Position numbers and translations under genes: made by a program | Shown: piece by piece, positions 16,021 to 42,365 of the stretch | Layout of the letters: the number at the start of each line of letters is the position of its first letter | Position numbering within the stretch: position 1 is the first letter of the stretch | Source: a virus | Lineage: Duplodnaviria > Heunggongvirae > Uroviricota > Caudoviricetes | DNA: 64,000 nt | IMG/VR virus record: IMGVR_UViG_3300026521_000571 | Direction: 5' to 3' (one strand) | The notes under the pieces: model-generated | What the model saw: the letters and a program-made list of their open reading frames with translations, nothing else | Database searches by the model: none | What the model was told of the DNA's origin: nothing

Positions 16021-16300
16021 AAATTAGCCTATTTTAGACAACCTTAAAGAACTTACCCGATGTAAGTTCAATATAATTATTTATATACTAAATTAAGTAA
16101 TTCTAATTATTTAGAAAATGCAAAAGCTAAATGTTTACATCGGCTTGAGTGCTTTAGCACTCGAAGCAATTAAATTAGAAAATGATTTATTTATAATAAT
16201 CATTTCTTGAAGACACTATGTTGGTTTATAAACCAACATAGTGTCGAATTATTTAGAAAATACAAAAGCTAAATGTTTACATCGGCTTGAGTTATAAATA
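16021..16300. promoter_or_regulatory. Divergent intergenic hub holding a ~70-bp promoter-like element (16021..16089), two copies of the GTTTACA-containing motif (16121..16150 and 16262..16290), hairpin gagtgct-tt-agcactc, and a ~100-bp element with a 34-bp perfect palindrome gacactatgttggtttataaaccaacatagtgtc (16212..16245)
   Basis: Seen directly; elements repeated at 24317..24388, 41811..41890 and 42162..42260. Confidence 0.7.
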
Positions 16301-24316: not shown

Positions 24317-24388
24317 AAAAATTAGCCTGTTGTAGGCAACATAAAGAACCTACCCGATGTAAGTTCAATAATATTATTTATATACTCA
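24317..24388. promoter_or_regulatory. Conserved ~70-bp promoter-like element (aaattagcctgttgtaggcaacataaagaacctacccgatgtaagttcaataatattatttatatact)
   Basis: Near-identical copies at 16021..16089 and 41811..41890, partial at 50264..50310 and 40836..40890; TATAAATA on the minus strand. Confidence 0.6.
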
Positions 24389-24441
24389 TTAGAGTAATTC
24401 TAAAAAACAAAGGGTTCAAAGTATTTTTAAAAGGATTAAAA

Positions 24442-25002
24442 ATGTCAACACAAAACAGCGCAGACACAGTATATGAATCAGTTCAAAATTATGTACGTCA
24501 TGATTTAAGTGAAAGTTTTACACCTTGGAGTGCTAAAGAACTCGAAGAAAAGAATAAAGAAGTCCGTTATAAATTTAGCTCAAGTAGTCTAAAAAAACTA
24601 GAAGGATTACATCCTGCTTTAGTGGATATTATTTTCGAGGTAGCCAACTCTATAGATTTGACAATAGTTTACGGATTAAGAACAGCTGAGGAGCAACATA
24701 AGTTATATCTAGCTGGAAGAAGTTCTAAAGATGGATATATTAAAAAATCTAGACATCAAAGTGGAAAAGCCGTTGATATATTGCCTCGACCAAGAGGTGT
24801 AAATATGTATAACTCAAAAGATAGAGATAATCCAACACGTTGGGCTTATTTTACAGGATTCTTCCAAGCAACAGCATTGGCTCTTGGATACGAAACTAGA
24901 GTTGGTTGGAAATGGAGAACAGATCCAATGGAAGTTCTAAAAAGACCTCTGAGAGAAAATAGCCTAGTTGATCCAAATCATTTCGAGATTTATATTAGGT
25001 AA
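24442..25002 (+). CDS. Peptidase M15 family endolysin (VanY / L-alanyl-D-glutamate peptidase-like)
   Basis: LRTAEEQHKLYLAG ... SRHQSGKAVDI metal-binding and catalytic motifs typical of M15 peptidoglycan hydrolases. Confidence 0.8.
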   Translation: MSTQNSADTVYESVQNYVRHDLSESFTPWSAKELEEKNKEVRYKFSSSSLKKLEGLHPALVDIIFEVANSIDLTIVYGLRTAEEQHKLYLAGRSSKDGYIKKSRHQSGKAVDILPRPRGVNMYNSKDRDNPTRWAYFTGFFQATALALGYETRVGWKWRTDPMEVLKRPLRENSLVDPNHFEIYIR

Positions 25003-25013
25003 AAGGAAACCGG

Positions 25014-25505
25014 GTGCAAATAAATTTACAAGAAAACATAACAGTAGTAAATAAAATTGATAATATTATAGAAGAAGCGATCAGGGGAAAAATTTCCCCT
25101 GAAATGTGGAGACAATCAGCATATGCTGATCTTACACCAGAAGAGTTACAATACGCTAAAGAAAATCTAGTCAAGAATAAATTAAAAAGTCAAATAAAAC
25201 CAGCAGCCTGGACAATGGGTATTGGAGCAGCTGCTTCATTAGCTACACATAATCCTTTACCATTAATGGGTGCAGCTGGACTTAATACTGGACGAATCAT
25301 CGGAACTGGTTTATTTGCAAAGAAGGTCCAGAAAGAAATAGATCCAGATAGATTAAAAGAATATAAACAAGCTCGTAAGGAAGTCGATAAAATTTATGCG
25401 ACGGACCCCGATGAATTGAAAGTATTTGATGGTGATAAAAAACAACAACAAGCCTTTTTAAATATGCATCGAAATAATACTTTAAAACAGATAGGTGTAT
25501 ATTAA
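25014..25505 (+). CDS. Membrane protein (163 aa), GTG start; candidate holin or spanin-like lysis partner
   Basis: AAGGAAA RBS before GTG; Gly-rich TM segment AAWTMGIGAAASLATHNPLPLMGAAGL; directly downstream of the endolysin. Confidence 0.45.
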   Translation: MQINLQENITVVNKIDNIIEEAIRGKISPEMWRQSAYADLTPEELQYAKENLVKNKLKSQIKPAAWTMGIGAAASLATHNPLPLMGAAGLNTGRIIGTGLFAKKVQKEIDPDRLKEYKQARKEVDKIYATDPDELKVFDGDKKQQQAFLNMHRNNTLKQIGVY

Positions 25506-25507
25506 AA

Positions 25508-26887
25508 ATGCACGGCTCTGATTTTGAAGAAAAATTGCCTCTGGCTGCTCTTCGGACAGTCGGAGCGGCTCTTGCCCTGAAAAAAATTAAAGATAGTGGG
25601 TATTTGACTGGGACGAAAAATTATTATCATGGAACATCGAAAGAAAGAGCAGAAGAAATTAAAAAGAATGGGTTACTTTCAAATAATCTTTTAAATAACC
25701 CGGATTCAATTAAAACAACTGCTACTTTAAATAAGGATGTCGCTGCAAAAAGTGATGATTATGTTTATCTAGCAAATGATAAATCAATAGCAGATGCTTT
25801 TGCAAATTCTTATGTTACTCCAACGAAACGAGCACCAGTTGGGCTTAATACTGAAAAATCACCTTATGGAGAAACACTCGTCGTTCCGATGTCGACTCAT
25901 AAAAAATTTAAGAGAAATCCAGAGACTGAAATGGGTTTCGATGAGTGGTATAAACTTAATTCACTTAATGTCCCTAAATTAGTAGCTAGACAACATTATA
26001 ATTCTATTAATGATGATACAGTTACGATAAAAGATAAGCTTGATCCTAAATATATTAAAGGATCTCCGGATTATAAAAGTCAAGCTTTTAAAAATTATAA
26101 AACTAACTGGGTAAAGGCGCCTGGAAAAGCAGCCCTTGCCCATCTTGGTGTGGCCGGCGTACTTGGAGGAACAGGATATTCAATGTATAGATTATTTGAA
26201 AACATAACAGTGATAAATAAAATTGATTCAATTATAGAGGAAGCTTCTTTTATTAATAAAGTAAAAAATTTCTTTTCTGGGTTCGCAATCCCTAAAAATA
26301 TTTTTAATAATTTATTAAAGAAAGCTAAAGTTAATGGTAGTCAATCTATTAAAAAAGAATTACAAGAGGCAAAGAGTCTTAGAAATATAAATGCCCCTGA
26401 GGTTCATGGGAAAGTAGATTATCAAGGCACATGTTATACCGGCGCTATGAAATTAATTGGTCTTAAAAATCTCGTTAGAAAATATCCGGATTTTTATAGT
26501 TTCTATCAAGCGTATACTAAAAAGACAAAGCCAATATATACAAAAGATCTTACAAAAAAAGAACTTGAATCTCTTCCGAAGGGTACTGTCATGGCAATAG
26601 TTAATAAAAGAGAGAGTCGATCAACAGTAAATACCGAATACAATAAAGAGCTTGGAATGATTCAAGAGACTCGTAAGATGATCGGTCATGTAATGATTTA
26701 TATGGGGAGAGATTCTAAGAAGAAAATAATTATTTTAGAGTTAAGTTATCCAAATGATGATAGAACCTTAAATGGTTCTGAACTTGAGTTGCAATTAGAT
26801 TTTGAAACAGATAGCTTTTTTAAAAGATACAATACTGATAAAAGAGATCTAGTTGTGTTTGACTATAGAGTTATGAAGACCCTTTAA
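25508..26887 (+). CDS. Hypothetical protein (459 aa) with a central hydrophobic segment
   Basis: Shares the ENITV(I/V)NKID(S/N)IIEEA peptide, and ~50 bp of DNA, with the N-terminus of the preceding gene. Confidence 0.55.
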   Translation: MHGSDFEEKLPLAALRTVGAALALKKIKDSGYLTGTKNYYHGTSKERAEEIKKNGLLSNNLLNNPDSIKTTATLNKDVAAKSDDYVYLANDKSIADAFANSYVTPTKRAPVGLNTEKSPYGETLVVPMSTHKKFKRNPETEMGFDEWYKLNSLNVPKLVARQHYNSINDDTVTIKDKLDPKYIKGSPDYKSQAFKNYKTNWVKAPGKAALAHLGVAGVLGGTGYSMYRLFENITVINKIDSIIEEASFINKVKNFFSGFAIPKNIFNNLLKKAKVNGSQSIKKELQEAKSLRNINAPEVHGKVDYQGTCYTGAMKLIGLKNLVRKYPDFYSFYQAYTKKTKPIYTKDLTKKELESLPKGTVMAIVNKRESRSTVNTEYNKELGMIQETRKMIGHVMIYMGRDSKKKIIILELSYPNDDRTLNGSELELQLDFETDSFFKRYNTDKRDLVVFDYRVMKTL

Positions 26888-29800
26888 GAAGGGTCTATCT
26901 GTTTAATAAAGACATAATTGCCTGCGTCGAATATTCTGCGGTAGTCGTTATTGAACATATTCTCAGCTTCAGTAAGTTTTGGATCAAAAACTTTAAGTTT
27001 ATCTTTAAGCTTATGTTTCTGAAAGCTAGCTCTATGCCATAACTGCTGAGGATTATCTGGATGGAAATAATAATAGTTCGGTGAACTTATATTTTTTAGG
27101 GAAAAGCCGAGTGTTTTATATAGATTACCATCAGACCATCGGCGATTCGCATAACTAACCAAGGCTACACTTTTATCCTTAGGTAGATTTCTTTCGAAAG
27201 CCTTAAATAATTTACTAGCAGCTCCTGGAACAGACCAGTCTTTTTTAACAGCGAATCTAATTAATTCATAAGCAAGTCCTTTATTCTTTTCGAACCTTGT
27301 TTTACCAAATGTCATAATTGCAATTAATTCCCCTTTGTATCTTAGACCATATCTAATTGGTCCGATAGCATCTCCACCTTGCAGATGGTTTTCATCAAGA
27401 AAATCTCTAGCTTCAGGTACTTCTACACAAACTGTACACTTTCTAGCAAATACTCTATTTTTCTGTTTATGCATTTTATTCTGAATAACACTAAACCAAA
27501 TATTTTTCTGACGATTATCTAAGAACTCATTTTCATTAATATTCAAAAGATGAATACCTTTAGCTTCGGCATCTTTTAATTTCGAAAGCATTTGATTTCT
27601 ATCTTTACCAGGCGTATTGAAAATACTATGCTTACTTATACCTTGGCTATGGAACATCAAACCGTTGTATTCAATAGCTAGATTATAATCAGGTAGATAT
27701 AAATCTAATTCCTTAGGTGGAATAACATCTCTTGGGTTTCTAATAATTCTAGCATCAGGATCTATTGATTTAATAAAATTATATATTTCATCTTCAGCGT
27801 AGCTGGATGTTCGCTTTTTGTAAGTAATATTATGCTGGCGTAATAATTTATAAGCAGTTGTTTCACTACAGTTGATGGTTTCCATCATCCTGATTAAATC
27901 TAGCTTATTGTCTTCTACAAAAGATTTTAAAAACTCTTCACTGGATGGATATTTATTTTCAATTTTAGCCTTAAAACTATTTGCTTGTTGATAGCTATCG
28001 GCTCCATAACGTTCTCGACAAGTATTTTTGGTTTTAGCTAATGTTTCAGGCAATTTGCTTTGTATGATTGCTTTAAAACTAGGTGTTTGTGGATAATAGT
28101 CTACTCCATAACGTTCGCGATTGGTTTCAATAACTTTTAATTTACATTCATCCGTTTGTGAATAATGTTCTACACCATAACGTTCGCGATTGGTTTTAAT
28201 AACTTTTAATTTACATTCATCCGTTTGTGAATAATTTTTAACACCATATTTTTTAAGGTTAGTAGCTTTGGCTTTTTCTTGATATTCAGGCAACCTTACT
28301 TTATAAACATCAGATTGTGTGTAATTTTTAGCACCGTATTTTTTAAGATTAGTCTCTTGAGATTTCTTAATTATTTCTGGCAGTCTAGTTTTAAAACTAA
28401 TAGATTGCATAAAATGTTCTACACCATAACGTTCGCGATTGGTTTTAATAACTTTTAATTTACATTCATCCGTTTGTGAATAATTTTTAACACCATATTT
28501 TTTAAGGTTAGTAGCTTGAGATTTCTTAATTATTTCTGGCAGTCTTAATTTATAAATATCTGATTGTGTATAATGATCGACACCATACTGCTCACGACAA
28601 GTTGCTTTAGTTTTAGCTATTATTTCAGGTTTTCTTGATTTATAATTAACAGATTGTGTATAATAATCTGTTCCGTAACGCTCTTGGTTAGTTTTAATGG
28701 TTTTAATTTTATATTCATCTGTTTGTGGATAATAGTCTACTCCATAACGTTCGCGATTGGTTTCAATAACTTTTAATTTACATTCATCCGTTTGTGAATA
28801 ACTTTTGACACCGTATCTTTCAAGGTTAGTTTTAAAAATCTGTTTAATTATTTCAGGTAACCTAGTTTTAAAACTAGTTGATTGCGTATAATAATCGGTC
28901 CCATAGCGTTCGCGATTAGTTGCTTTGGATTTTAATTTATATTCATCAGTTTGAGTATAATATTCTACGCCGTATCTTTCGAGGTTGGTTTTAATAATTC
29001 TTAATTTGCATTCATCTGTTTGTGAATAATAATCTGTCCCATATCGTTCGCGATTGGTCTTAATAGTTTTATTTCTATATTCTGGTAATTTAGATTTATA
29101 TTCATCGGATTGTGTAAAATAAGCTGCTCCATACAATTTGCGGTTGGTTTCAATAACTTTTAATTTACATTCATCCGTTTGTGAATAACTTTTCGCCCCG
29201 TATTTTTCTAGGTTGGTTTTAAAAGCCCGTTTAATTATTTCAGGTAGCCTAGTTTTAAAACTGGTTGATTGCATATAACTGTCAGTCCCATAACGCTCAA
29301 GACAAGTCATCTTCGATTTAATTTTAAACTCATCTGTTTGGAAATACCAATCAGCATTATAACGCTCACGATTAGTTTTAATAATTTTTTCTAAAATTTT
29401 GATAGAATTTTCTTTAATAAAATTTTTAAAAGCTTCAGTTTGTGAATAATGTTCTACACCATATCTTTCAAGGTTAGTTGCTTTCGCTTTCTCTTGGACT
29501 TCGGGCAGCATACTTGGGACAGCAACTCCATATGTCTCCAAAAAATAATTTTTAGTTTTTTCTTTAATTTCTTCGGATTGTGCTGCGTGACGTACACCAA
29601 AACGCTCCAAATTAGTCTGTTCCTGTTTTTCTTTAATTTCTTTTACTTGCAAAGCATGTCTTACACCGTATTTTTCTTCGAGAGAATCCTGTGCTTTATC
29701 TACAGTATATCTTCTCATATATTCAGTATGTTCTTGGTCTTTTTTACCGCAGGTATAATAGAATCTACTTCTTCCCTGCTCATAAAATCTTAAGTCACCA

Positions 29801-30072
29801 CAGACTGGACAAAAAGCATCATCACCAATTAAACCATTTCGAATAAATATTAATCTAGTATTATCATCAATATCTTCAGGTAAAAAATCAGTGTACTTTT
29901 TAATAGTGCTTTTGAAACCTAAATATTCTTCTTTTAATTTTTTTCGTCTAGGGCATTTAGCGAAACGCTTTGTTTTTGGATTATATACTTCAACTTCTTC
30001 TAGAAATTTTAAATACATATCTGGTTCAAGATATTTTATTCTAATATGTTCTTTTATATTCTCATCTTGCAT
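26884..30072 (-). CDS. Large tandem-repeat protein (1062 aa) with a C-terminal nuclease-like domain; putative homing-endonuclease-like protein
   Basis: N-terminal Cys pairs (CPRRKK, CPVCG ... TCGKKD); about 30 tandem 24..31-aa units (YSQTDECKLKVIETNRERYGV/DY); then LDLYLPDYNLAIEYNGLMFHSQG resembling the PD-(D/E)xK Vsr/DUF559-type core; conserved tail shared with 32033..33715. Confidence 0.75.
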   Translation of the reverse strand: MQDENIKEHIRIKYLEPDMYLKFLEEVEVYNPKTKRFAKCPRRKKLKEEYLGFKSTIKKYTDFLPEDIDDNTRLIFIRNGLIGDDAFCPVCGDLRFYEQGRSRFYYTCGKKDQEHTEYMRRYTVDKAQDSLEEKYGVRHALQVKEIKEKQEQTNLERFGVRHAAQSEEIKEKTKNYFLETYGVAVPSMLPEVQEKAKATNLERYGVEHYSQTEAFKNFIKENSIKILEKIIKTNRERYNADWYFQTDEFKIKSKMTCLERYGTDSYMQSTSFKTRLPEIIKRAFKTNLEKYGAKSYSQTDECKLKVIETNRKLYGAAYFTQSDEYKSKLPEYRNKTIKTNRERYGTDYYSQTDECKLRIIKTNLERYGVEYYTQTDEYKLKSKATNRERYGTDYYTQSTSFKTRLPEIIKQIFKTNLERYGVKSYSQTDECKLKVIETNRERYGVDYYPQTDEYKIKTIKTNQERYGTDYYTQSVNYKSRKPEIIAKTKATCREQYGVDHYTQSDIYKLRLPEIIKKSQATNLKKYGVKNYSQTDECKLKVIKTNRERYGVEHFMQSISFKTRLPEIIKKSQETNLKKYGAKNYTQSDVYKVRLPEYQEKAKATNLKKYGVKNYSQTDECKLKVIKTNRERYGVEHYSQTDECKLKVIETNRERYGVDYYPQTPSFKAIIQSKLPETLAKTKNTCRERYGADSYQQANSFKAKIENKYPSSEEFLKSFVEDNKLDLIRMMETINCSETTAYKLLRQHNITYKKRTSSYAEDEIYNFIKSIDPDARIIRNPRDVIPPKELDLYLPDYNLAIEYNGLMFHSQGISKHSIFNTPGKDRNQMLSKLKDAEAKGIHLLNINENEFLDNRQKNIWFSVIQNKMHKQKNRVFARKCTVCVEVPEARDFLDENHLQGGDAIGPIRYGLRYKGELIAIMTFGKTRFEKNKGLAYELIRFAVKKDWSVPGAASKLFKAFERNLPKDKSVALVSYANRRWSDGNLYKTLGFSLKNISSPNYYYFHPDNPQQLWHRASFQKHKLKDKLKVFDPKLTEAENMFNNDYRRIFDAGNYVFIKQIDPS

Positions 30073-30168
30073 CTCTTTCCTTTATATTATTGATTCGTAA
30101 CAATAAGCTTAACTAAGTTTAAACACTATGCTTATGAATAATTTATATTAAGTTTAAAAAGGACACAA

Positions 30169-31983
30169 ATGGCTCAATTGACCCACAATTTAAAAGGTTC
30201 CGGAGTTTTTGACAAACACGGAAATGAAATAGATATCGCGAGAGCTTATCTAATGTGTAAAATGTCACCGTTATTTTTTATAGAGAATTTCGTTATTATT
30301 GAGGTTGCTGGAGGTAAAATACCTATTAAAGAATCTGATTTATGGTATAGCACTCCGAAATATAGACAATTAATTCGAGGATTGCAAGAGTTTGACGCCG
30401 TTTCGTTTATGGCATCACGCCAGCACGGGAAAACTCAAACTGTGGCAGAATATTTGCTCTGGGCAATAATTTTCCACCCAGGTCTATTAATTGAGTACGT
30501 CACCTTAGATTCCAAGCGTGCTACTGACTTTATTAAACGTATAAAATTCATGCTCAAAGAATTACCTGATTGGCTTCGCGTTGATTTCAAAGGCAAATCA
30601 GAAAAAGTTACTTTTATTGAGCTTGAAAATGGCGCTAGAATTAACTCAAATTATGTTAGTGGTAGTATTGATCCTGATCGTCTTGGGCGTGGTATGTCAG
30701 CACCAATCATATACATTGATGAAACAGCTTTTATCCCAAAAATGGATATTGTCTGGGTAGCGATGCAACCAGCTATTTCAGCTGCAAGTAGATTTGCCAA
30801 GAAAAATGGATATCCAAATGGAATCATTTATACAACAACCCCAAATGGAGCTGGTGTAAATTTCTTTTATAATGTTTGGACCAGAGGCTGGGATAGCTCA
30901 GAATTATTCGAAGGCGATTCAATAAAAATTAGAGAAGACTGGCGTGATGTATTAGATTCAGACGATAATAAAAATAACTTCGTTAGGTTTAAAATTCACT
31001 GGTCTGAGACTAATAAAGATGAGAAATGGTATAAACAGCAAATTAAAGAATTGAACTTTAATATGAGAAAGGTTTCTCAAGAACTCGACCTGGTATTTCT
31101 TGGATCAAATAATGCTGTTTTCGACGATAGTATTCTTGAAGTTTTTACACCAAAAACAGTCAAAAGTGAACTTACATTGGCTTATGGAGAGAAGTTTAAT
31201 TTATTCGAAGATCTTGATCCAGAGAAAAAATACCTACTTGGGGTTGATACAGCAGCTTCAACTGCAGCTAAAAGCGACTATAGTGCTATGGTTTTGGTTG
31301 AAGCAGAGACTGGTCTTCAAGTTGGTGAATGGCATGGAAAATTCTCGATCGTAAAAAGATTTGCGCTGATGGTTAAATCAACGATCAGAGGACTTCATGA
31401 TATTCATGGATTGACAGATGATAGTTTAACAGTAATAATAGAAAGAAATAGTTTTGGATTAGGTGTTGTGGAAGATATTCTTTATTCGGATGAAGATTTC
31501 GATTATCCAGGTTATATGTACTGGACACAATTAAAACATGATAAAGTTCCTGGAATGCAGACTGACGCCAAACGTCGTGAGAAAATGTTTAATTTACTAT
31601 TGAGTATAATTAATGAAAATCCAAAATTAGCTCAAGGTGTTTTATTACAAGAAGAACTTCGAAATTTAGAGCAGAAACCGAATGGAAGATTTGAGGCGAC
31701 GACCGGAGCACATGATGACGTCGTGCTTTCATACAACTTCTGTCTTTTCGTCCGCGACGAGATGATCAAAGATGGATTAATTACACTAGATGGGAGTTTC
31801 AATAAACTCAATGCTGAACGTATAAATTATTATTTAGATGTAAGTATGAATAGTGTTGATCTCTTGAAAGATCGAAGAAAAAATAAAGAAGAATTAGAGA
31901 TAATCATTATAGATAACGATCATGAAGAGCGGCGCCAAGAAATGGACCAATTTGATTTCTGTAATAATATTATTATGCTTTAG
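30169..31983 (+). CDS. terL: Terminase large subunit (T4 gp17-like ATPase plus nuclease)
   Basis: Walker A SRQHGKTQT; Walker B IIYIDETAF; RNaseH-like nuclease motifs LGVDTAASTA and AHDDVVLSYNF; 604 aa. Confidence 0.9.
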   Translation: MAQLTHNLKGSGVFDKHGNEIDIARAYLMCKMSPLFFIENFVIIEVAGGKIPIKESDLWYSTPKYRQLIRGLQEFDAVSFMASRQHGKTQTVAEYLLWAIIFHPGLLIEYVTLDSKRATDFIKRIKFMLKELPDWLRVDFKGKSEKVTFIELENGARINSNYVSGSIDPDRLGRGMSAPIIYIDETAFIPKMDIVWVAMQPAISAASRFAKKNGYPNGIIYTTTPNGAGVNFFYNVWTRGWDSSELFEGDSIKIREDWRDVLDSDDNKNNFVRFKIHWSETNKDEKWYKQQIKELNFNMRKVSQELDLVFLGSNNAVFDDSILEVFTPKTVKSELTLAYGEKFNLFEDLDPEKKYLLGVDTAASTAAKSDYSAMVLVEAETGLQVGEWHGKFSIVKRFALMVKSTIRGLHDIHGLTDDSLTVIIERNSFGLGVVEDILYSDEDFDYPGYMYWTQLKHDKVPGMQTDAKRREKMFNLLLSIINENPKLAQGVLLQEELRNLEQKPNGRFEATTGAHDDVVLSYNFCLFVRDEMIKDGLITLDGSFNKLNAERINYYLDVSMNSVDLLKDRRKNKEELEIIIIDNDHEERRQEMDQFDFCNNIIML

Positions 31984-32032
31984 TGTTTCTAAATACTACT
32001 ATATAAAATTTAAATTAAAAAGGTTTTATTTT

Positions 32033-33715
32033 ATGGAAAACGATATGTTAGAAAAGTACGATAAATTTATTAAAAAATATAGTTCATTAGGAATAATAAA
32101 TTTTAAAGGGATTCGAGGGAAATCAAAAGCGAATAAAAATCAAAAAAAATTAATACATGAAGCGGAAGATGAATTGTGGAAGCTGACAGATTTTGCACCT
32201 GAAAATTACACCACTAAAGATAGAATGCAATTGATACGTGCCAAAATAACTTCTGAAAATTTTAAATGCCCAGTGTGTTCTAAACCCAGAATTAAATCAA
32301 ATGGGATGAATAAATTTTCAATTACTTGTGGTAAAAAAGATAAAGAACATGTAGAATATGCAAAAAAAGTTTTAAGCGATAGATTAAGAAAACCTAAAAA
32401 ATGTCCAGTTTGCGGGATAATGCATAATAATCGAAGTAAAGCCCAACTATGTGGTCTGATTGATGATGAGCATAAACATCATGCTATATCCTACCAGCAA
32501 TCAAAATATAAAAACACATTAATGGAAAAATATGGTGTCGAAAATGTCTCACAATTGGAAACTACTAAAGAAAAAAAGAAGAAAAAATTTCTAGAAAAAT
32601 ATGGTGTTGAAAACCCATCTCAATTGCATTTTAATCTAGATAATTTTAAAAATCTGAATAAAGAATTTATAGAAAATAATTTTATTATTGATGGCAAATA
32701 TGTTGATTTTGAAAAAATGGAGGAATATCTTGGTTGCTCAATTGTTAAAGTAAAATCAGTTCTTAAAGAGTTTGGTATAAAATATAAAAGACGTATCGGA
32801 GTGAGTAAACCTGAAAAAGAAATTTTAGATTTCATTAAAACAATAGATCCAGATGTTAGAGTTATTATGAATTCAAAGACCATTATTCCGCCTAAAGAAT
32901 TGGATTTATATCTACCTGATTATAATCTAGCTATTGAATACAATGGCTTGATGTTCCATAGCCAAGGTGTAAGTAAACACCGTATTTTCAATACTCCTCT
33001 AAGAAATCGTAATGAATTTTTAATAAAGACTAAAGTTTGTGAAAAAAAAGGAATACAGCTTTTACATATCAATGAAAATGAATGGTTAGATGATAAATTA
33101 AATATAATATGGAAATCAGTAATTAGAAATAAATTAAGAAAGAATACAATAAGTATAGGTGCTAGAAAATGTTTTCTTAGAAAACTAGTAACAGATGAAG
33201 ATCTAAAATTAAGCGCTAATTTTTTTTATGAAAACCATCTGCAAGGTGCAGGTGCTTTGGGTTCAATAAGGTATGGTTTATTTTATGAAGGCGAATTAAT
33301 ATCATGTATGACATTTGGTAAGACTAGATTTAGAAGAGGAGCATATGAATTAATAAGATTTGCTAATAAAATAAATTATAGTGTTCCAGGAGCGGCTAGT
33401 AAACTTTTAAAAGCATTCAGACAAGACCATAGCACAATTATTGTGAGTTATGCCAATCGCCGATGGTCTGATGGTAATTTATATAAAACACTTGGATTTA
33501 AATTAGAAGGAATTTCGAGTCCAAATTACTATTATTTTCATCAAAAAAATAAATTTAAGCTATGGCATAGAGCTAGCTTCCAGAAACATAAGCTTAAAGA
33601 TAAACTTAAAGTTTTTGATCCAAAGCTTACTGAAGCTGAGAATATGTTCAATAACGGCTTCCGTAGAATATTCGATGCAGGCAATTATGTCTTCATCTTA
33701 GAGGAGAAGGGTTAG
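32033..33715 (+). CDS. Paralog of 26884..30072: short-repeat version with the same C-terminal nuclease-like domain and tail
   Basis: Zn-ribbon-like CPVCS ... TCGKKDKEH and CPVCG ... CG; two EKYGVEN repeat units; LDLYLPDYNLAIEYNGLMFHSQG identical to the paralog; 3' ~130 bp about 95% identical at DNA level; start chosen at ATG 32033 to avoid overlapping terL. Confidence 0.7.
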   Translation: MENDMLEKYDKFIKKYSSLGIINFKGIRGKSKANKNQKKLIHEAEDELWKLTDFAPENYTTKDRMQLIRAKITSENFKCPVCSKPRIKSNGMNKFSITCGKKDKEHVEYAKKVLSDRLRKPKKCPVCGIMHNNRSKAQLCGLIDDEHKHHAISYQQSKYKNTLMEKYGVENVSQLETTKEKKKKKFLEKYGVENPSQLHFNLDNFKNLNKEFIENNFIIDGKYVDFEKMEEYLGCSIVKVKSVLKEFGIKYKRRIGVSKPEKEILDFIKTIDPDVRVIMNSKTIIPPKELDLYLPDYNLAIEYNGLMFHSQGVSKHRIFNTPLRNRNEFLIKTKVCEKKGIQLLHINENEWLDDKLNIIWKSVIRNKLRKNTISIGARKCFLRKLVTDEDLKLSANFFYENHLQGAGALGSIRYGLFYEGELISCMTFGKTRFRRGAYELIRFANKINYSVPGAASKLLKAFRQDHSTIIVSYANRRWSDGNLYKTLGFKLEGISSPNYYYFHQKNKFKLWHRASFQKHKLKDKLKVFDPKLTEAENMFNNGFRRIFDAGNYVFILEEKG

Positions 33716-33735
33716 GTTCCATTTGGAACCTAACC
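33710..33735. terminator. Perfect 11-bp stem-loop (ggttaggttcc-attt-ggaacctaacc) between convergent genes
   Basis: Seen directly; overlaps the stop codon of 32033..33715. Confidence 0.55.
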
Positions 33736-34554
33736 TTAGATCTCAAATGTTTCAATTTTATTCAGAGTCTCGCCAGGATAACCGAGTGGGTTGCATTTGA
33801 ACTCAATATCATTTAATTTAAAATTATAGTTATCATGAGTGTGTCCAAAGACATAAACTTTTGGATTTATATCTTTAATTAAATTAAATCTGTTATTCCA
33901 ATAGAATATATTATCCGGGCTGCCAATGTATTTCGAATTCCCGTGCTCCGAATTCCAAGGTATTTGAGGGACATGTGTTACTAAGATATCGCAGCCTTCT
34001 TCAGCAATATCTTTTAATTTCTGAGCCTGATCTTTTTCGTAATTCTCTAGCCAATAATTCTGCTGAAATTTATAGTTAGAAATATATATCATTCTACTAT
34101 CATTTGATACCTGGCGCCAGCGTTCAACATCAATAAACCCATGAATTTGGTACCAGCCCATACAACCACCTATTTTAATATCAGTCCCAAGAATATTTTT
34201 AACTTCACCTCTTAATAAAAATACATCTTCTAGTTCTTTTACTCTATCTTCTAGATCAATAATTCTGCTGATCGAATTCCCATAAATTTTTTTCTGAGAT
34301 CCAGACACAAGATACATATCATGATTTCCCAATACAAAATATATTTCTTTATATATTTCTTTAAGAAGTGTCAAGAATTTTATTGTCAGGTGATTGTAAT
34401 GACTTAAATCACCTGCTATAATTAAAACTTCAGATGGTTCATCTGGTAATATTTTATTAATTAATAATTTAAGTTGTTTTTCTGTCTTCGATAAATTCTT
34501 TAGTTTCACATAGAAATCTAAATGCACATCACTTATGTAATCAATTTTCATCAT
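33736..34554 (-). CDS. Calcineurin-like metallophosphoesterase (272 aa)
   Basis: SDVHLD, AGDLSH, GNHDMY and FGHTHD metallophosphatase signature blocks. Confidence 0.75.
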   Translation of the reverse strand: MMKIDYISDVHLDFYVKLKNLSKTEKQLKLLINKILPDEPSEVLIIAGDLSHYNHLTIKFLTLLKEIYKEIYFVLGNHDMYLVSGSQKKIYGNSISRIIDLEDRVKELEDVFLLRGEVKNILGTDIKIGGCMGWYQIHGFIDVERWRQVSNDSRMIYISNYKFQQNYWLENYEKDQAQKLKDIAEEGCDILVTHVPQIPWNSEHGNSKYIGSPDNIFYWNNRFNLIKDINPKVYVFGHTHDNYNFKLNDIEFKCNPLGYPGETLNKIETFEI

Positions 34555-34612
34555 TTTCCTTTAAAATTAATATTTCCTTTAAAAATTTATAAAAAATAAA
34601 AATAAAAAAATT

Positions 34613-34643
34613 GGGAAGGTTGTGTTCTGAACACAACCTTCCC
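34613..34643 (-). terminator. Rho-independent terminator for the minus-strand operon ending at 34649: perfect 14-bp stem (gggaaggttgtgttc-tg-aacacaaccttccc) followed on the minus strand by a long T-run
   Basis: Seen directly; A-run at 34590..34612 on the plus strand is the U-tract in minus sense. Confidence 0.75.
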
Positions 34644-34648
34644 TCTTT

Positions 34649-34999
34649 CTAGTCTTCTGCACCATCACTATCAGTAAGCATTTCTTTAAAATATTCTACT
34701 TGTCTAGAGATATCATCATCTTTTGCTTCATCCCTATTCTCAAAATTATCGAATGGTTTTAATCCAAGCTTTTCTGCTGCTATTTGATTGAAATCTATTA
34801 AATCATGAAGTGTTGCCTCAGAATCTAATAAACCAACATATTTATATGCACCAAGTATTGAATTAATAGTTAGAAATGATCCATGAATTAGATCTAAAAT
34901 ATTATCTGGATTTATATTCATTTCAAAAGCTGACGACTGCTTAACGACTTTAGCTTCTTTTGATTTCTCTACTTCTTCAACTTTTTTTAAATGTATCAT
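34649..34999 (-). CDS. Hypothetical acidic protein (116 aa)
   Basis: ORF. Confidence 0.5.
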   Translation of the reverse strand: MIHLKKVEEVEKSKEAKVVKQSSAFEMNINPDNILDLIHGSFLTINSILGAYKYVGLLDSEATLHDLIDFNQIAAEKLGLKPFDNFENRDEAKDDDISRQVEYFKEMLTDSDGAED

Positions 35000-35013
35000 T
35001 ATACTTATCCTTC

Positions 35014-35325
35014 CTATGAGAGATCTTTAAAGATCTCTTTCATTTTTGCTTGAGTTTCCTCAAGTTGCTTGACTTTATCTTTTACTTTTTTACGACCTTT
35101 CTTTGTACTAATGTTACGCCCAACAACATCTTCAGGTTTAATATCCATTTTCTTAGCTGTTTTTTTAGCAAATTTAGCTAGATCTTTTAAGGTTGCATCC
35201 TCTGAAAGAATTCCACCTTTTTTATAAGCTTCTAAAAAACCAACCATAGCGACAGTTGTTTCAGCTATAAAATTTGCAGCATCCGGAACATTCACCAACA
35301 TTTGACCTTTTTCTATTGTAATCAT
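35014..35325 (-). CDS. Hypothetical basic protein (103 aa)
   Basis: ORF, start coupled to the Pnkp-like gene stop. Confidence 0.5.
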   Translation of the reverse strand: MITIEKGQMLVNVPDAANFIAETTVAMVGFLEAYKKGGILSEDATLKDLAKFAKKTAKKMDIKPEDVVGRNISTKKGRKKVKDKVKQLEETQAKMKEIFKDLS

Positions 35326-37829
35326 TTTTCTTCCTTTAAAATTTTAATTATTTTTCTTCTTAGTGTCGGAACATCTAGATTGTGTTCACCATTTTCGTGA
35401 ATCTGTTTCAATGCCTCAAGAACCTTAAATTCTTCAGCAATATGTAGTGATTTTTTGACCAGTATCTCTTTCTCTTTGGTGAATCCTCCTTTTTTTTGAT
35501 TCAAGTAATATTTATTAACTTTGTGTTCGATTCCTCTTACTCTTTTCCAAAAACTATACCAAGGTGTTTTTAATTTAAACATTATTGGTGATTGACCATC
35601 GTTTGTGTTATCTTCGAACACAAAGCCTTCAAAGCCATCGTCAATAAATAATGGTTGTCTTTTATACTGGTTTATAAAAGCACTTAAATCCAATGAATTG
35701 TGTAGTTTATCTACGATTTCTTTTACAGGTGCGCCTATATAAACACTATTAAAATCCAATAAACCTTCGTAACTCATTTTTTTGAAGTTCAATTCATTAT
35801 AGATAATATCTAATAGAATCGCTTGCCCTTCAGGATACCCAACGATATGTGGATCTTTGACCGGATCAATAATTTCAAATACCAATGTAGCATTGAGTTC
35901 TTGCAATTTTATTAAAAGATTCGGAGTCAAGAAATCTTTCGTATGTTCTCGAACCATATCTGGATAATCACCTTTTATAGTACTTTTGCTTGCGAAGAAC
36001 CATTTGCCATTTCTAACAGATACTAAACCGAGAAAACCATTAGGTTTATCGAACACGCTAACTGGATAGTTTAAGCTTTCAAAATCAGCTGGTGTTAATC
36101 CCATTCGCTCATTGAGGTTAAAGAATTTATTATAACCACGGGCCACTATTTCGATCGGATTGTTTTGAGTTAAAAATAAACCTCTAGCTCTTAAAGTTAT
36201 ATCCGACCAGTGGCCTTTTTGAAAGACAGATGATTTAAAATTTACACTTTCGATTTTTTCATCACCTTCTTCAAAATATAATTCTTTGCATACAGTTCCT
36301 TGATCAGTTTTGAGTTCTTCTAGAACCTTTTGATGTTCTTCTTCTGGAATTATGTCGACAGCGAAAGCCGCACTTTTTTTAAGACGTCGAGTTCTTAAAC
36401 ACTCTTTTGTCTTTTCTGTCGGCTCTTGATTGATAATCCTTATGTTTGAGTTATTTATAACACAAGCTCGAATACCAATGCTAACATCACCATTTAAGTT
36501 GATTAATGGAAAAGTATCCATAGCCTCTTTATTCTCTGGATTTCTATGGCCCGAGAATTGGATGACATTTTGAGTCCTCTCTTTGAATACATTGGCTATT
36601 TCATATATGTCTTCATATACTCCAATTCCATTTATAAGTTCATTAGCTGGTGTCACAAGATTTGGAACACTCGGAGTTCCGGTGTGGTTCGAGTACAAAT
36701 GAACTCTTTTACCTTGAAATATAAAAGAAGAGATTCTATAAGGAACCATTTTTCGCCAGATTTTCATAAGATCATTTCTAGTTATATGACTCAACATTAG
36801 AATCAACATTGATCTTCTTGCACTAAATCTAATGTTTTTTACATCTGTTGCTGTTGCACTATCAACATTTATAAATTCTTTCTTTTTGAAAAGAGTCCAA
36901 AATAACTCATAACGCAATTCTTTTAAAAGATCTTCATCCAGAATTCTATGAAGTTTATCAATATCTCTATACGCTGCAATCTTGCCGAATCCTTTTTGCT
37001 CCAAGAAAATATTGATATGAGGGAGAGCTGCTTTATATAAACTCTTAAAATATATCATAGAGCCTTCGTGATTGCCTTGAATCAATTGACAATTATGATT
37101 ATCAATCAAATCTAAAAGAATTGTTGCTGTTTCAACAATACTCTTTGCGCTTGGACCTCGATCAAAATAATCACCGAGGAATGTTATATTTTTAGGGGCT
37201 TCATTAGATTCCCAATCAACACCAGCTGCCTTTAGAGTTAATTTTAACTCATCAGCACAACCATGAATATCACCAATATATATTTTCTCATGGGTTTCAG
37301 TTTCATCAAAAGCAGTTCCAGAGAACTCATTAGCAAATTCATGTGGTTTTATTACTGAGTACCAATTTGGATGTTCAATCAATTGACTTCTATACCATAG
37401 GGTTTCAATTCGATCATTTGGAACTTTATTGATTGTCCGGTGCCCGTTTCTTTCAAGAAGAGTTTCTAAAGACACATCAGTAAAATCAATACACTTGATT
37501 TGATATCTATGCTCTTCTTTATATTTTTTATAAATTCTTATCGCAGCCTCACGAGTGTGTGTTGCATCAACTACAATCATTTCACCATTTTTAGCTTTCT
37601 GATCTATAATTTTAAAAACCATTTCCCAAACGAGTTCTTCTGAACTCATTGCGTACCGGCGACTTGCGTCAACCTGTTGCTCTGGGAAATTTATCATTTT
37701 CCTAATGTTATCAGGACTCACAACACAGTGTTGCAAAATATCACTACCAAAAATATCTTGTGATGTTTTTTCAATTAATGTTGTTTTTCCTGCGCCAGGA
37801 GCTCCCAGCATAAAATATAAAACTCTCAT
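35322..37829 (-). CDS. Pnkp-like trifunctional RNA repair enzyme: polynucleotide kinase, calcineurin-type phosphatase and a C-terminal RNA-ligase-like adenylyltransferase
   Basis: N-terminal P-loop MLGAPGAGKTT; central GDIHG, GDYFDRG and GNHEG metallophosphatase motifs; C-terminal KxNG lysine motif (FDKPNGFLG) in a ~380-aa domain; order and size (835 aa) mirror bacterial Pnkp. Confidence 0.75.
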   Translation of the reverse strand: MRVLYFMLGAPGAGKTTLIEKTSQDIFGSDILQHCVVSPDNIRKMINFPEQQVDASRRYAMSSEELVWEMVFKIIDQKAKNGEMIVVDATHTREAAIRIYKKYKEEHRYQIKCIDFTDVSLETLLERNGHRTINKVPNDRIETLWYRSQLIEHPNWYSVIKPHEFANEFSGTAFDETETHEKIYIGDIHGCADELKLTLKAAGVDWESNEAPKNITFLGDYFDRGPSAKSIVETATILLDLIDNHNCQLIQGNHEGSMIYFKSLYKAALPHINIFLEQKGFGKIAAYRDIDKLHRILDEDLLKELRYELFWTLFKKKEFINVDSATATDVKNIRFSARRSMLILMLSHITRNDLMKIWRKMVPYRISSFIFQGKRVHLYSNHTGTPSVPNLVTPANELINGIGVYEDIYEIANVFKERTQNVIQFSGHRNPENKEAMDTFPLINLNGDVSIGIRACVINNSNIRIINQEPTEKTKECLRTRRLKKSAAFAVDIIPEEEHQKVLEELKTDQGTVCKELYFEEGDEKIESVNFKSSVFQKGHWSDITLRARGLFLTQNNPIEIVARGYNKFFNLNERMGLTPADFESLNYPVSVFDKPNGFLGLVSVRNGKWFFASKSTIKGDYPDMVREHTKDFLTPNLLIKLQELNATLVFEIIDPVKDPHIVGYPEGQAILLDIIYNELNFKKMSYEGLLDFNSVYIGAPVKEIVDKLHNSLDLSAFINQYKRQPLFIDDGFEGFVFEDNTNDGQSPIMFKLKTPWYSFWKRVRGIEHKVNKYYLNQKKGGFTKEKEILVKKSLHIAEEFKVLEALKQIHENGEHNLDVPTLRRKIIKILKEEK

Positions 37830-38311
37830 TAATCATCACCTGAATCGCTAGAATAACTTGAGCCGCCTGAACCGCTAGAATAACTTGAGCCACCAGAACC
37901 GCTAGAATAACTTGAGCCGCCTGAACCGCTAGAATAACTTGAGCCGCCTGAACCGCTAGAATAACTTGAGCCGCCTGAACCGCTAGAATAACTTGAGCCA
38001 CCAGAATCTATATCACTACTAGAATCGTCAGTTAACATTTCCGCCATTAAAATATGATCCAATATATCATTATCGTCAAGTTCATTCTTAATTTCATTTT
38101 TTGAATTCTGTCTTGACTTTATTTTACGAGCGTCAGATAATTTAACATTTTCAGATTCTGATCCAGATTCAGACCCAGGTTCTAATTTATAAGGTGCTTT
38201 TTTCTTATAAACATGTTTCTCATAAGTGCTTTGTGAAAAAGTAATATAAATCCAGATTCCAATAATAAAAAGAATACCTAAACCCATTAAAACATAATCT
38301 AAAGTTGTCAT
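37829..38311 (-). CDS. Membrane-anchored protein (160 aa) with six tandem GSGGSSYSS repeats at its C-terminus
   Basis: N-terminal TM helix LMGLGILFIIGIWIYITF; coding 27-bp tandem repeat. Confidence 0.55.
   Translation of the reverse strand: MTTLDYVLMGLGILFIIGIWIYITFSQSTYEKHVYKKKAPYKLEPGSESGSESENVKLSDARKIKSRQNSKNEIKNELDDNDILDHILMAEMLTDDSSSDIDSGGSSYSSGSGGSSYSSGSGGSSYSSGSGGSSYSSGSGGSSYSSGSGGSSYSSDSGDD
37846..38007. repeat. 27-bp tandem repeat x6 (cgctagaataacttgagccgcctgaac) encoding the Ser/Gly/Tyr repeats
   Basis: Seen directly; period 27 bp. Confidence 0.85.
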
Positions 38312-40913: not shown

Positions 40914-41750
40914 CTAGACCCCTTCAAGGATGAGATTATCGAGATCCCAATCCTCTTTAGACCACACTGCAAAGAAGCCGTTCGCGTGAACGAACTTAGC
41001 TCCTTTACTTTTTTTAGTGATTACAAGGTGATCTGTGTCCACAGTCACTTTGATCTCTTGGGTTTGTGGGTCGTGGAATATCGACCCTACCACACCTTCG
41101 TGGTAGGCCTGGATATCTTTAAGGCTGACAAACTCACCGACCTCCACAAAAGCCCAATTCCCAACTTTGAGTGGACGAGCTGCTTTTGCTCTCCCCTCAA
41201 AGATTTTCTCTTTTTCAGATCTAGAAGCTGCAGCTGCAGCCTCTAACTCACCAAAGATTTTACCAGCGGCCGGCGAGAAGATTTCACGGATAATTTTCTC
41301 GGCGAAATTCAAGGCCTTCGAGAAGGCCACCTCCTGATCGATGCCCTGGATATCCAGGGCATTTAGATCCCCTAGATACCCTAAATATCGATCCCATGTA
41401 TTATTTGGATCGTAGTTGACGCGAGTATCCCTCGCGTCAACTGCCTTAACTAGGTCAGCCATAACCTCGTTATCATCATCGGTTCCCCATAAATATTCGG
41501 CAACTAGGCCGAATGCGCTTCGACCATATTGCTCATCATCCTTTTGAAAATGATGGTGATCAAATCTAAAAGCAGCCGGATTATAAACACCACCGACATC
41601 TACCACGATATCCGCGGTTTCAATTATCTCATGATTACGAGATCTTACTATCTCGTAATCATGACCAGCAGCTCTAAGAGCAGCTATAGCAAATACTTCG
41701 TCCGCATGGAAAATTCCATTATGAGTTATTAAAGTTTTCATTATATTCAC
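40914..41750 (-). CDS. MYG1 / UPF0160 family metal-dependent hydrolase-like protein
   Basis: N-terminal THNGIFHADEVFA motif characteristic of MYG1/UPF0160; His-rich FDHHHF; GC content visibly higher than genome average. Confidence 0.7.
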   Translation of the reverse strand: MNIMKTLITHNGIFHADEVFAIAALRAAGHDYEIVRSRNHEIIETADIVVDVGGVYNPAAFRFDHHHFQKDDEQYGRSAFGLVAEYLWGTDDDNEVMADLVKAVDARDTRVNYDPNNTWDRYLGYLGDLNALDIQGIDQEVAFSKALNFAEKIIREIFSPAAGKIFGELEAAAAASRSEKEKIFEGRAKAARPLKVGNWAFVEVGEFVSLKDIQAYHEGVVGSIFHDPQTQEIKVTVDTDHLVITKKSKGAKFVHANGFFAVWSKEDWDLDNLILEGV

Positions 41751-41759
41751 CTTATAAGA

Positions 41760-42365
41760 TTACACCCAATGAAAAGGGCTGCAGCATTACCTGCACTATA
41801 ATATGTCTATTATTGACAACTATAAAGAACCTACCCGATGTAAGTTCAATAATATTATTTATATACTAACTGAAGTAATTCTAAAATGGTTTCAATAGAT
41901 TATGTTTTACAAAAGCCAAATGTTTACATCGGCTTGAGTGCGAGTTAACTCGCACTCTTTGAAATAAATTATTTTATGTTTTACAAAAGCCAAATGTTTA
42001 AACCTATTCCAGTTATGTTGGAACATAACTCTTTAAAAAGTTTAAACTTTTTAAAGACAGATGAACTTGGGTTTAAACCCAAGTTCATAACTCTAGTCAA
42101 TTTTTAATTGACTAGATAAAGGAAAATGATTAAAATCATTTTCCGAACTCTTTGAAATAAAATTAGAAAATGATTTATTTATAATAATCATTTTCTTGAA
42201 GACACTATGTTGGTTTATAAACCAACATAGTGTCGAATTATTTAGAAAATACAAAAGCCAAAACGTCCACAACATTTAGAGTTGATTATTACTATTATAT
42301 AAAAATATATTAGCAGTGCTTTAATCATTTAGCATAAAGACCTGACAATATTAAAAGGAAATAAA
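41760..42365. promoter_or_regulatory. 600-bp non-coding divergent hub packed with perfect palindromes and copies of all intergenic repeat families
   Basis: Promoter-like element 41811..41890; GTTTACA motif plus 26-bp palindrome agagtgcgagttaactcgcactct (41935..41961); inverted copy of the window-start element (41975..42040); palindromes aaaagtttaaactttt, gaacttgggtttaaacccaagttc, ctagtcaattttt-aattgactag, ggaaaatgatt-aa-aatcattttcc; ~100-bp element with 34-bp palindrome (42162..42260). Confidence 0.8.

Follow-up and report, generated by a model that had tools for sequence, protein, structure and literature searches.

We analysed the surroundings of terL, the gene of the large terminase, in a 64,000-nucleotide (nt) stretch of DNA from the IMG/VR virus record IMGVR_UViG_3300026521_000571 (Caudoviricetes). 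This whole stretch is called the window here, and all coordinates are window positions. The terminase gene sits between two oppositely oriented paralogs, gene A on the minus strand and gene B on the plus strand, and all three open reading frames (ORFs) were confirmed, A and B with the positions, orientation and lengths in amino acids (aa) that an earlier note, written from the sequence alone, had given for them. The genes at the locus are the following:

26884..30072, minus strand: gene A, an ORF of 1062 aa, probable Hef-type free-standing homing endonuclease whose repeat array is expanded
30169..31983, plus strand: terL, 604 aa, large terminase of the T4-like type (Terminase_6N, E 2.9e-12; PHROG 2)
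32033..33715, plus strand: gene B, 560 aa, probable Hef-type homing endonuclease with two DUF7487 units

The paralogy of A and B, also proposed in the earlier note, is evident towards both ends of the proteins. About 400 C-terminal residues are 58% identical in amino acid sequence (E 4e-144), and residues 1-134 of A match residues 50-211 of B, the N-terminal Cys-containing region, at 35% identity. No third copy of A or B was found within the 64-kb window. The order of domains is the same in A and B, namely a zinc ribbon, DUF7487 repeats, a helical linker, a Vsr/DUF559-like nuclease and a Mom-like GNAT domain, with the following positions:

29671..30072, minus strand: A residues 1-134, N-terminal helical region and Cys-cluster zinc ribbon (CPVC...TCG)
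27940..29670, minus strand: A residues 135-711, 22 DUF7487 units as delimited by unit parsing
27748..27939, minus strand: A residues 712-775, small helical linker domain, from the secondary structure of the models; possibly helix-turn-helix-like, a function that we infer from these models
27448..27747, minus strand: A residues 776-875, Vsr/DUF559-like nuclease domain of the PD-(D/E)xK superfamily
26887..27447, minus strand: A residues 876-1062, Mom-like domain with a GNAT fold, about 190 aa long, recognised with Foldseek, with weak Pfam Acetyltransf matches
32849..33133, plus strand: B residues 273-367, Vsr/DUF559-like nuclease domain
33134..33712, plus strand: B residues 368-560, Mom-like GNAT domain

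Membership of a homing endonuclease family, which the earlier note had suspected, is well supported for both genes. A and B match PHROG 3339, 'homing endonuclease', with E values of 2.8e-169 and 2.9e-111, respectively, and tblastn aligns them at 40-50% identity to Hef or Hef-like genes of Proteus, Campylobacter, Acinetobacter and T4-like phages. In all, 414 phage records have matching genes annotated as Hef or Hef-like, the database proteins matching at E <= 1e-10 number more than 3,500, and B has full-length structural matches to phage 'homing endonuclease' proteins. The sequence homology to Hef runs across both the nuclease and the C-terminal domains. In phage U5, Hef is a homing endonuclease whose site of action is nrdB (PMC2988022), and Hef-type enzymes were grouped with the Vsr-like I-Bth0305I lineage in the 'EDxHD' family (Taylor et al., 2011; PMC3239194). 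I-Bth0305I (PDB 3R3P) resembles A and B in that a Vsr-like catalytic domain is joined to an N-terminal modular DNA-binding region; however, it is intron-encoded, carries NUMOD motifs instead of DUF7487, is devoid of a Mom-like domain and gave no sequence-level match in our comparison. Compared with other Hef-like enzymes, A is distinguished by its 22 DUF7487 units, the maximum found, as 227 relatives have 0 to 17 units per protein (median 5), and by a 30-aa unit subtype that is almost unique to it. The pair also differs from known Hef-like genes in bracketing a single gene in opposite orientation. The Hef-type family is known, and what stands out here is the extreme repeat expansion of A.

Hef-like genes typically occur as free-standing genes between conserved essential phage genes, as with the four copies beside structural genes in LIMEstone1 (PMC3296691), and A and B share this arrangement as free-standing genes between conserved phage genes that are present in some relatives and absent from others. 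Relatives of terL were compared at ten distinct loci with 60-70% identity (L002, L003/L004, L005, L006/L007, L008/L009, L010, L012-L015) and at a further eight with 41-49% identity (L016-L023), and no Hef-type gene was found beside terL at either the ten or the eight. At L010 (terL 67% identical) an A/B-like N-terminus, cut by the contig edge, lies upstream of terL. Downstream of terL at the same locus, in the position of B, a 404-aa protein (L010:2209-3423) has the same zinc ribbon and DUF7487 module joined to a different C-terminal domain, which weakly matches Pfam MUG113 (E 0.0088); such a protein suggests that domains have been shuffled at this site. The closest homologs in a related 290-kb phage are located beside a primase-like gene and a prohead protease gene, and the Tequatrovirus homolog lies between gp24 and gp23. 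A distribution as patchy and site-variable as this, beside essential genes, characterises free-standing homing endonuclease genes, and the flanks of terL fit a hotspot occupied by mobile elements.

The earlier note had predicted a Vsr/DUF559-type nuclease at the C-terminus of A. The nuclease domain was found, with a Vsr/DUF559-type restriction-endonuclease-like fold (the AlphaFold model of B has a predicted local distance difference test score, pLDDT, of 89.4), but its supposed C-terminal position was not, since the Mom-like GNAT domain follows it and holds the 94%-identical patch of the inverted repeat described below. Among 52 relatives, Pfam assigns MTES_1575 to 24 and Vsr to six. The catalytic-type residues E289, D291, E302 and H309 are invariant in the family and intact in both A and B. 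The catalytic residues of I-Bth0305I are E170, D196, N208, H213 and D222; N304 of the family stands five residues ahead of H309, as N208 does ahead of H213, a likeness of spacing, no direct alignment to 3R3P or Vsr having been obtained. In the explanation that we favour, the Vsr-like domain of A and B would cut the DNA.

For the domain behind the nuclease, a GNAT fold with Mom as the nearest relative was found by several routes. The best PDB match in Foldseek is Mom of phage Mu (8bv8, E 1e-4, 199 columns), a Mom structure in BFVD matches at E 1.1e-9, and a profile of 229 family C-terminal domains matches Mu Mom at E 3.5e-4 (hhalign, local mode). The Pfam Mom model (PF25680) matches seven of the 52 relatives at E <= 0.1; its gathering score of 27.1 bits is not reached by B (20.8 bits), and A has no Mom match. 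Mom moves glycine from Gly-tRNA to the N6 of adenine in double-stranded DNA, with R111, S124, D149 and R151 being essential (PMC13219725). Of these residues, R111 pairs with R442 (100% conserved) and R151 with R477 (81%); D149 pairs with position 475, which is N in both A and B (in the family, N 57% and D 41%), and the counterpart of S124 is ambiguous in the profile alignment. The motifs ELxR and S[FY]A[DN]xR...G..Y are common to Mom (PDB 8BV8) and the C-terminal domain, whereas fusion behind a nuclease, the change of D149 to N and the canonical GNAT xxGGA loop, which Mom does not have, set the domain of A and B apart. R442, H402, R378, G453 and D548 are 98-100% conserved in 229 sequences, and the Mom-like domain is more conserved than the nuclease domain. 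It probably serves in DNA contact or base handling. In the literature searched, we found no paper linking Hef-type homing endonucleases with Mom. Hef-type homing endonucleases carry a strongly conserved relative of an enzyme recently shown to aminoacylate adenine in DNA, and this domain is, together with the DUF7487 array as a portable DNA module, the point of wider interest across the whole family.

The repeat array of A differs in several respects from its first description. Instead of about 30 units of 24 to 31 aa, as counted in the earlier note, A contains 22 units, comprising 13 of 23 aa, seven of 30 aa and two of 34 aa; the two units ascribed to B were borne out. The supposed HNH_repeat-like identity did not survive a search with hidden Markov models, in which the repeat proved to be DUF7487 (Pfam PF24308), matched by A at E 6e-83 with 278.5 bits and by B with 27.8 bits, just over the cut-off of 27. 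HNH_repeat and NUMOD models match neither A nor B at E <= 0.01, nor A at E <= 0.1, and do not figure in the 25 families that the 52 relatives match most frequently (E <= 0.1). The N-terminal Cys cluster ahead of the array had been recognised correctly, with C88, C91 and C108 of A conserved in the family alignment. Tandem Repeats Finder reports a period of 249 at 2.3 copies on the A array, equivalent to a higher-order repeat of 30 + 30 + 23 aa, and also a period of 69. In their DNA, two of the units match each other at 100%, so part of the array has expanded recently. None of the 229 family sequences examined is longer than A, and the protein database has no entry identical to A.

A net charge of +37 makes the array basic, and each unit consists of one helix and a short 3-10 turn in the AlphaFold model of A (overall pLDDT 75), in which residues 330-690 reach a pLDDT of about 80 and the first eight units are poorly modelled. 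Among 889 family units, positions Y1, G2, K15, K17, T19 and K/R23 are conserved and positions 5-7, 9-10, 16 and 18 are variable; within A the variable positions are 4, 5, 7, 12, 16 and 18. The earlier note had likened the array to a modular repeat of the transcription activator-like effector (TALE) type. The array does behave as a portable module joined to nucleases. A TALE-like code was rejected after per-repeat alignment and structure prediction, because a unit has just one helix and its variable positions form a loose, scattered cluster with no two-residue hypervariable site. The likeness to TALE repeats and NUMOD modules lies in N-terminal units, tandem or modular, to which exchangeable nuclease domains are fused. 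TALE repeats, however, are 34 aa long with two helices, whereas the unit of the A/B family has 23 aa and one helix, and its DNA binding is putative.

The distribution of DUF7487 arrays extends well beyond the Hef-type proteins. With the A array alone as query, 10,759 cluster representatives were retrieved at E <= 1e-3, and fusion partners were tallied by motif and Pfam in the best 150 of these. Among these best 150, the Hef nuclease together with the Mom-like domain is present in 57 and neither is present in 78. The partners in the latter 78 include other PD-ExK types, DUF559 or MTES_1575, TnsA-like, endonuclease I-like and HNH-like domains, and DNA methyltransferases. The methyltransferase-like fusions (P0392, P0369, P0397, P0445 and P0420) have an (F/I)(T/I)CPPY motif and are up to 1127 aa long, so the module is not confined to nucleases. 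Because the arrays are joined to so many different DNA enzymes, these fusion partners suggest that the DUF7487 array is likely a DNA-targeting module. DUF7487 is uncharacterised, has more than 10,000 cluster representatives and is fused to DNA-acting catalytic domains of at least seven kinds, and this spread makes it a candidate DNA-targeting scaffold. A bolder proposal, which we regard as speculative and rather doubtful, is that DUF7487 is a programmable DNA-recognition repeat in which each unit would read a short DNA step via positions 5-7 and 9-10, with phages retargeting nucleases, methyltransferases and Mom-like enzymes by shuffling or expanding units and A being the extreme case with 22. 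The same doubt attaches to a linked possibility, catalytic activity of the Mom-like domain, in which case Hef-type enzymes would be fusions of a nuclease and a DNA modifier.

The inverted repeat of about 95% identity that had been reported at the 3' ends of A and B was confirmed as 139 nt at 94%, as was the further similar stretch, and a third patch in the nuclease core had been missed. The patches, to which no strand applies, are:

26906..27044 (left) and 33558..33696 (right): 139-nt inverted repeat, 94% identical, encoding a helical insertion and the last strands of the Mom-like domain
27103..27159 (left) and 33443..33499 (right): 57-nt inverted repeat, 91% identical
27610..27726 (left) and 32882..32998 (right): third patch, about 91% identical, in the nuclease core, with a 41-nt exact run

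The longest exact run in the region of the 139-nt repeat is 44 nt, and the remainder of the region common to A and B is 73-81% identical at the DNA level. The repeat is inverted because A and B, being paralogs, face opposite ways, and its origin is this paralogy, not chance. Within the last 49 codons, 35 of the 42 identical amino acids are encoded by the same codon, compared with 99 of 163 elsewhere (Fisher p = 0.004), and the codons common to the two ends include GC-ending ones, which are expected to be rare at about 30% GC. This raised synonymous-codon identity points to local gene conversion. The earlier note had mentioned conversion of the terL segment among its options, and conversion between A and B is the form that is modestly supported.

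A second, independent assembly of the locus was available. A contig in ENA is identical to the window over 27736-37898 and spans the whole A array, terL and B; for gene A, the identical portion is 27736-30072 with the entire repeat array included. The contig ends at 27736, 10 nt from the nuclease-core patch of about 91% identity common to A and B, which could be an assembly-graph branch or within-population variation. At 37839-38006 there is a 27-nt tandem repeat with 6.2 copies at 95% identity. The ENA contig is 108 nt (four copies) shorter at this repeat, so that its copy number differs between the two assemblies.

We consider it highly probable that A and B are two paralogous Hef-type free-standing homing endonuclease genes on both flanks of terL. 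Of the options raised in the earlier note, the one that fits best is intron-less homing beside terL. If A and B act like Hef, Seg and Mob of the T-even phages, the enzyme would cut, during a mixed infection, in or near terL of a competitor genome that is without the gene, and repair of the break from the endonuclease-carrying genome would then copy the endonuclease gene. The same repair would co-convert neighbouring terL sequence, terL being the likely co-converted marker. DNA binding and targeting most likely fall to the N-terminal zinc ribbon together with the basic helical repeats of DUF7487, the near-identical patches of the inverted repeat would represent local gene conversion between A and B, and the 22-unit array would have grown via recent tandem duplication. 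A repeat-rich locus would in this manner be explained by two selfish endonuclease genes that have settled to the left and right of an essential packaging gene, and would neatly illustrate both a homing hotspot and gene conversion between paralogs. Several points nevertheless weigh against this explanation. The terL flanks of relatives (terL at most 70% identical) are too weakly syntenic to define an insertion point, and the gene-conversion statistic is modest. A and B themselves reach no Pfam nuclease model, and the family profile, compared with PDB sequences, returned no solved Vsr-type structure and only a spurious match (E 4.2), so that their nuclease assignment rests on the fold and on matches in relatives. 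The cleavage site, the empty target site and the homing event of A and B are predictions by analogy, and a simple homing model leaves the role of the strongly conserved Mom-like domain unexplained.

A first rival explanation concerns function. A and B could be not mainly selfish but bifunctional nuclease and DNA-modifying enzymes for phage competition or defence, in which DNA of the phage itself would be chemically marked by the Mom-like domain, leaving unmarked host or rival DNA to be cut by the nuclease. The similarity of the C-terminal domain to Mu Mom above all other structures, its conservation beyond that of the nuclease domain, the retained counterparts of the essential Mom residues R111 and R151 (PMC13219725) and the fusion of DUF7487 arrays to DNA methyltransferases all agree with such a function. 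We still think it unlikely, as the counterpart of Mom D149 is N in A, in B and in 57% of the family, that of S124 is ambiguous, PADLOC returned no match, Hef itself is described as a homing endonuclease (PMC2988022), and the patchy distribution at variable sites beside essential genes is typical of homing endonuclease genes.

Two further explanations concern the arrangement of the DNA, and we rate both lower still. The earlier note had suggested inversion of the terL segment: a 6.5-kb segment with the 5' parts of A and B and terL would be an invertible cassette, in which homologous recombination swaps the 3' ends of A and B. The arms are indeed inverted, with 139 nt at 94%, a 44-nt exact run and two more patches, recombination inside them would leave both reading frames intact, and the end of the ENA contig at 27736 adjoins one of the patches. 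Both assemblies, however, agree in orientation across terL and B; terL runs, as it does in relatives, in the direction of the upstream plus-strand block and towards the downstream minus-strand block; no recombinase gene was called beside the segment; and the patches of identity are short and imperfect and already accounted for by paralogy and gene conversion, making an invertible cassette highly improbable. That the long array of A is an assembly artefact, or A a decaying gene, would be conceivable from the difficulty of assembling 69- to 249-nt repeats whose units reach 100% identity, and from A being the longest family member with an exact sequence absent from the protein database. The chance of this is slight in the extreme: the whole array is identical in the independent ENA contig and is therefore not an assembly artefact, the ORF is open over 1062 codons with the conserved nuclease and GNAT residues all intact, and relatives reach 15-17 units.

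The phage carrying the two endonuclease genes is itself novel: its terL is at most 26% identical to the terL of any deposited phage, and no GenBank phage gave a near-identity DNA match to 26000-34600. A terL search and an exact 37-mer search of IMG/VR viral contigs found nothing, and thus no second strain in which repeat number or orientation could be compared. Metagenomic relatives of its terL, at 60-70% identity, are located on contigs of 273-290 kb, and in our best explanation the phage belongs to a jumbo-phage lineage. NCBIfam, PADLOC and Rfam gave no matches.

Two hairpins lie at the outer ends of the pair, the second of them read from the sequence, and no strand applies to either:

26877..26896: hairpin AGACCCTTTAAGAAGGGTCT, covering the point where the stop codons of the plus-strand ORF 25508-26887 and the minus-strand gene A overlap
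33711..33736: perfect 12-bp hairpin (GGTTAGGTTCCA TT TGGAACCTAACC) between the convergent ends of gene B and a metallophosphatase gene

On the left side of gene A, the adjacent ORFs 25014-25505 (163 aa) and 25508-26887 (459 aa) have the peptide ENITV(V/I)NKID(N/S)IIEEA in common, neither matches any PHROG, and an endolysin gene (24442-25002) precedes them. On the right side, 35322-37829 (minus strand) encodes an 835-aa fusion of a polynucleotide kinase/phosphatase and an RNA ligase (PHROG 8238, E 2.7e-114), a tRNA-repair-type enzyme. Dispersed short repeats were also seen between the ENA contig and the window, one of 107 nt at 97% identity (about 42048-42154 versus 16168-16273) and one of 70 nt at 93% (about 41709-41778 versus 24337-24405), and these may be regulatory or mobile mini-elements.

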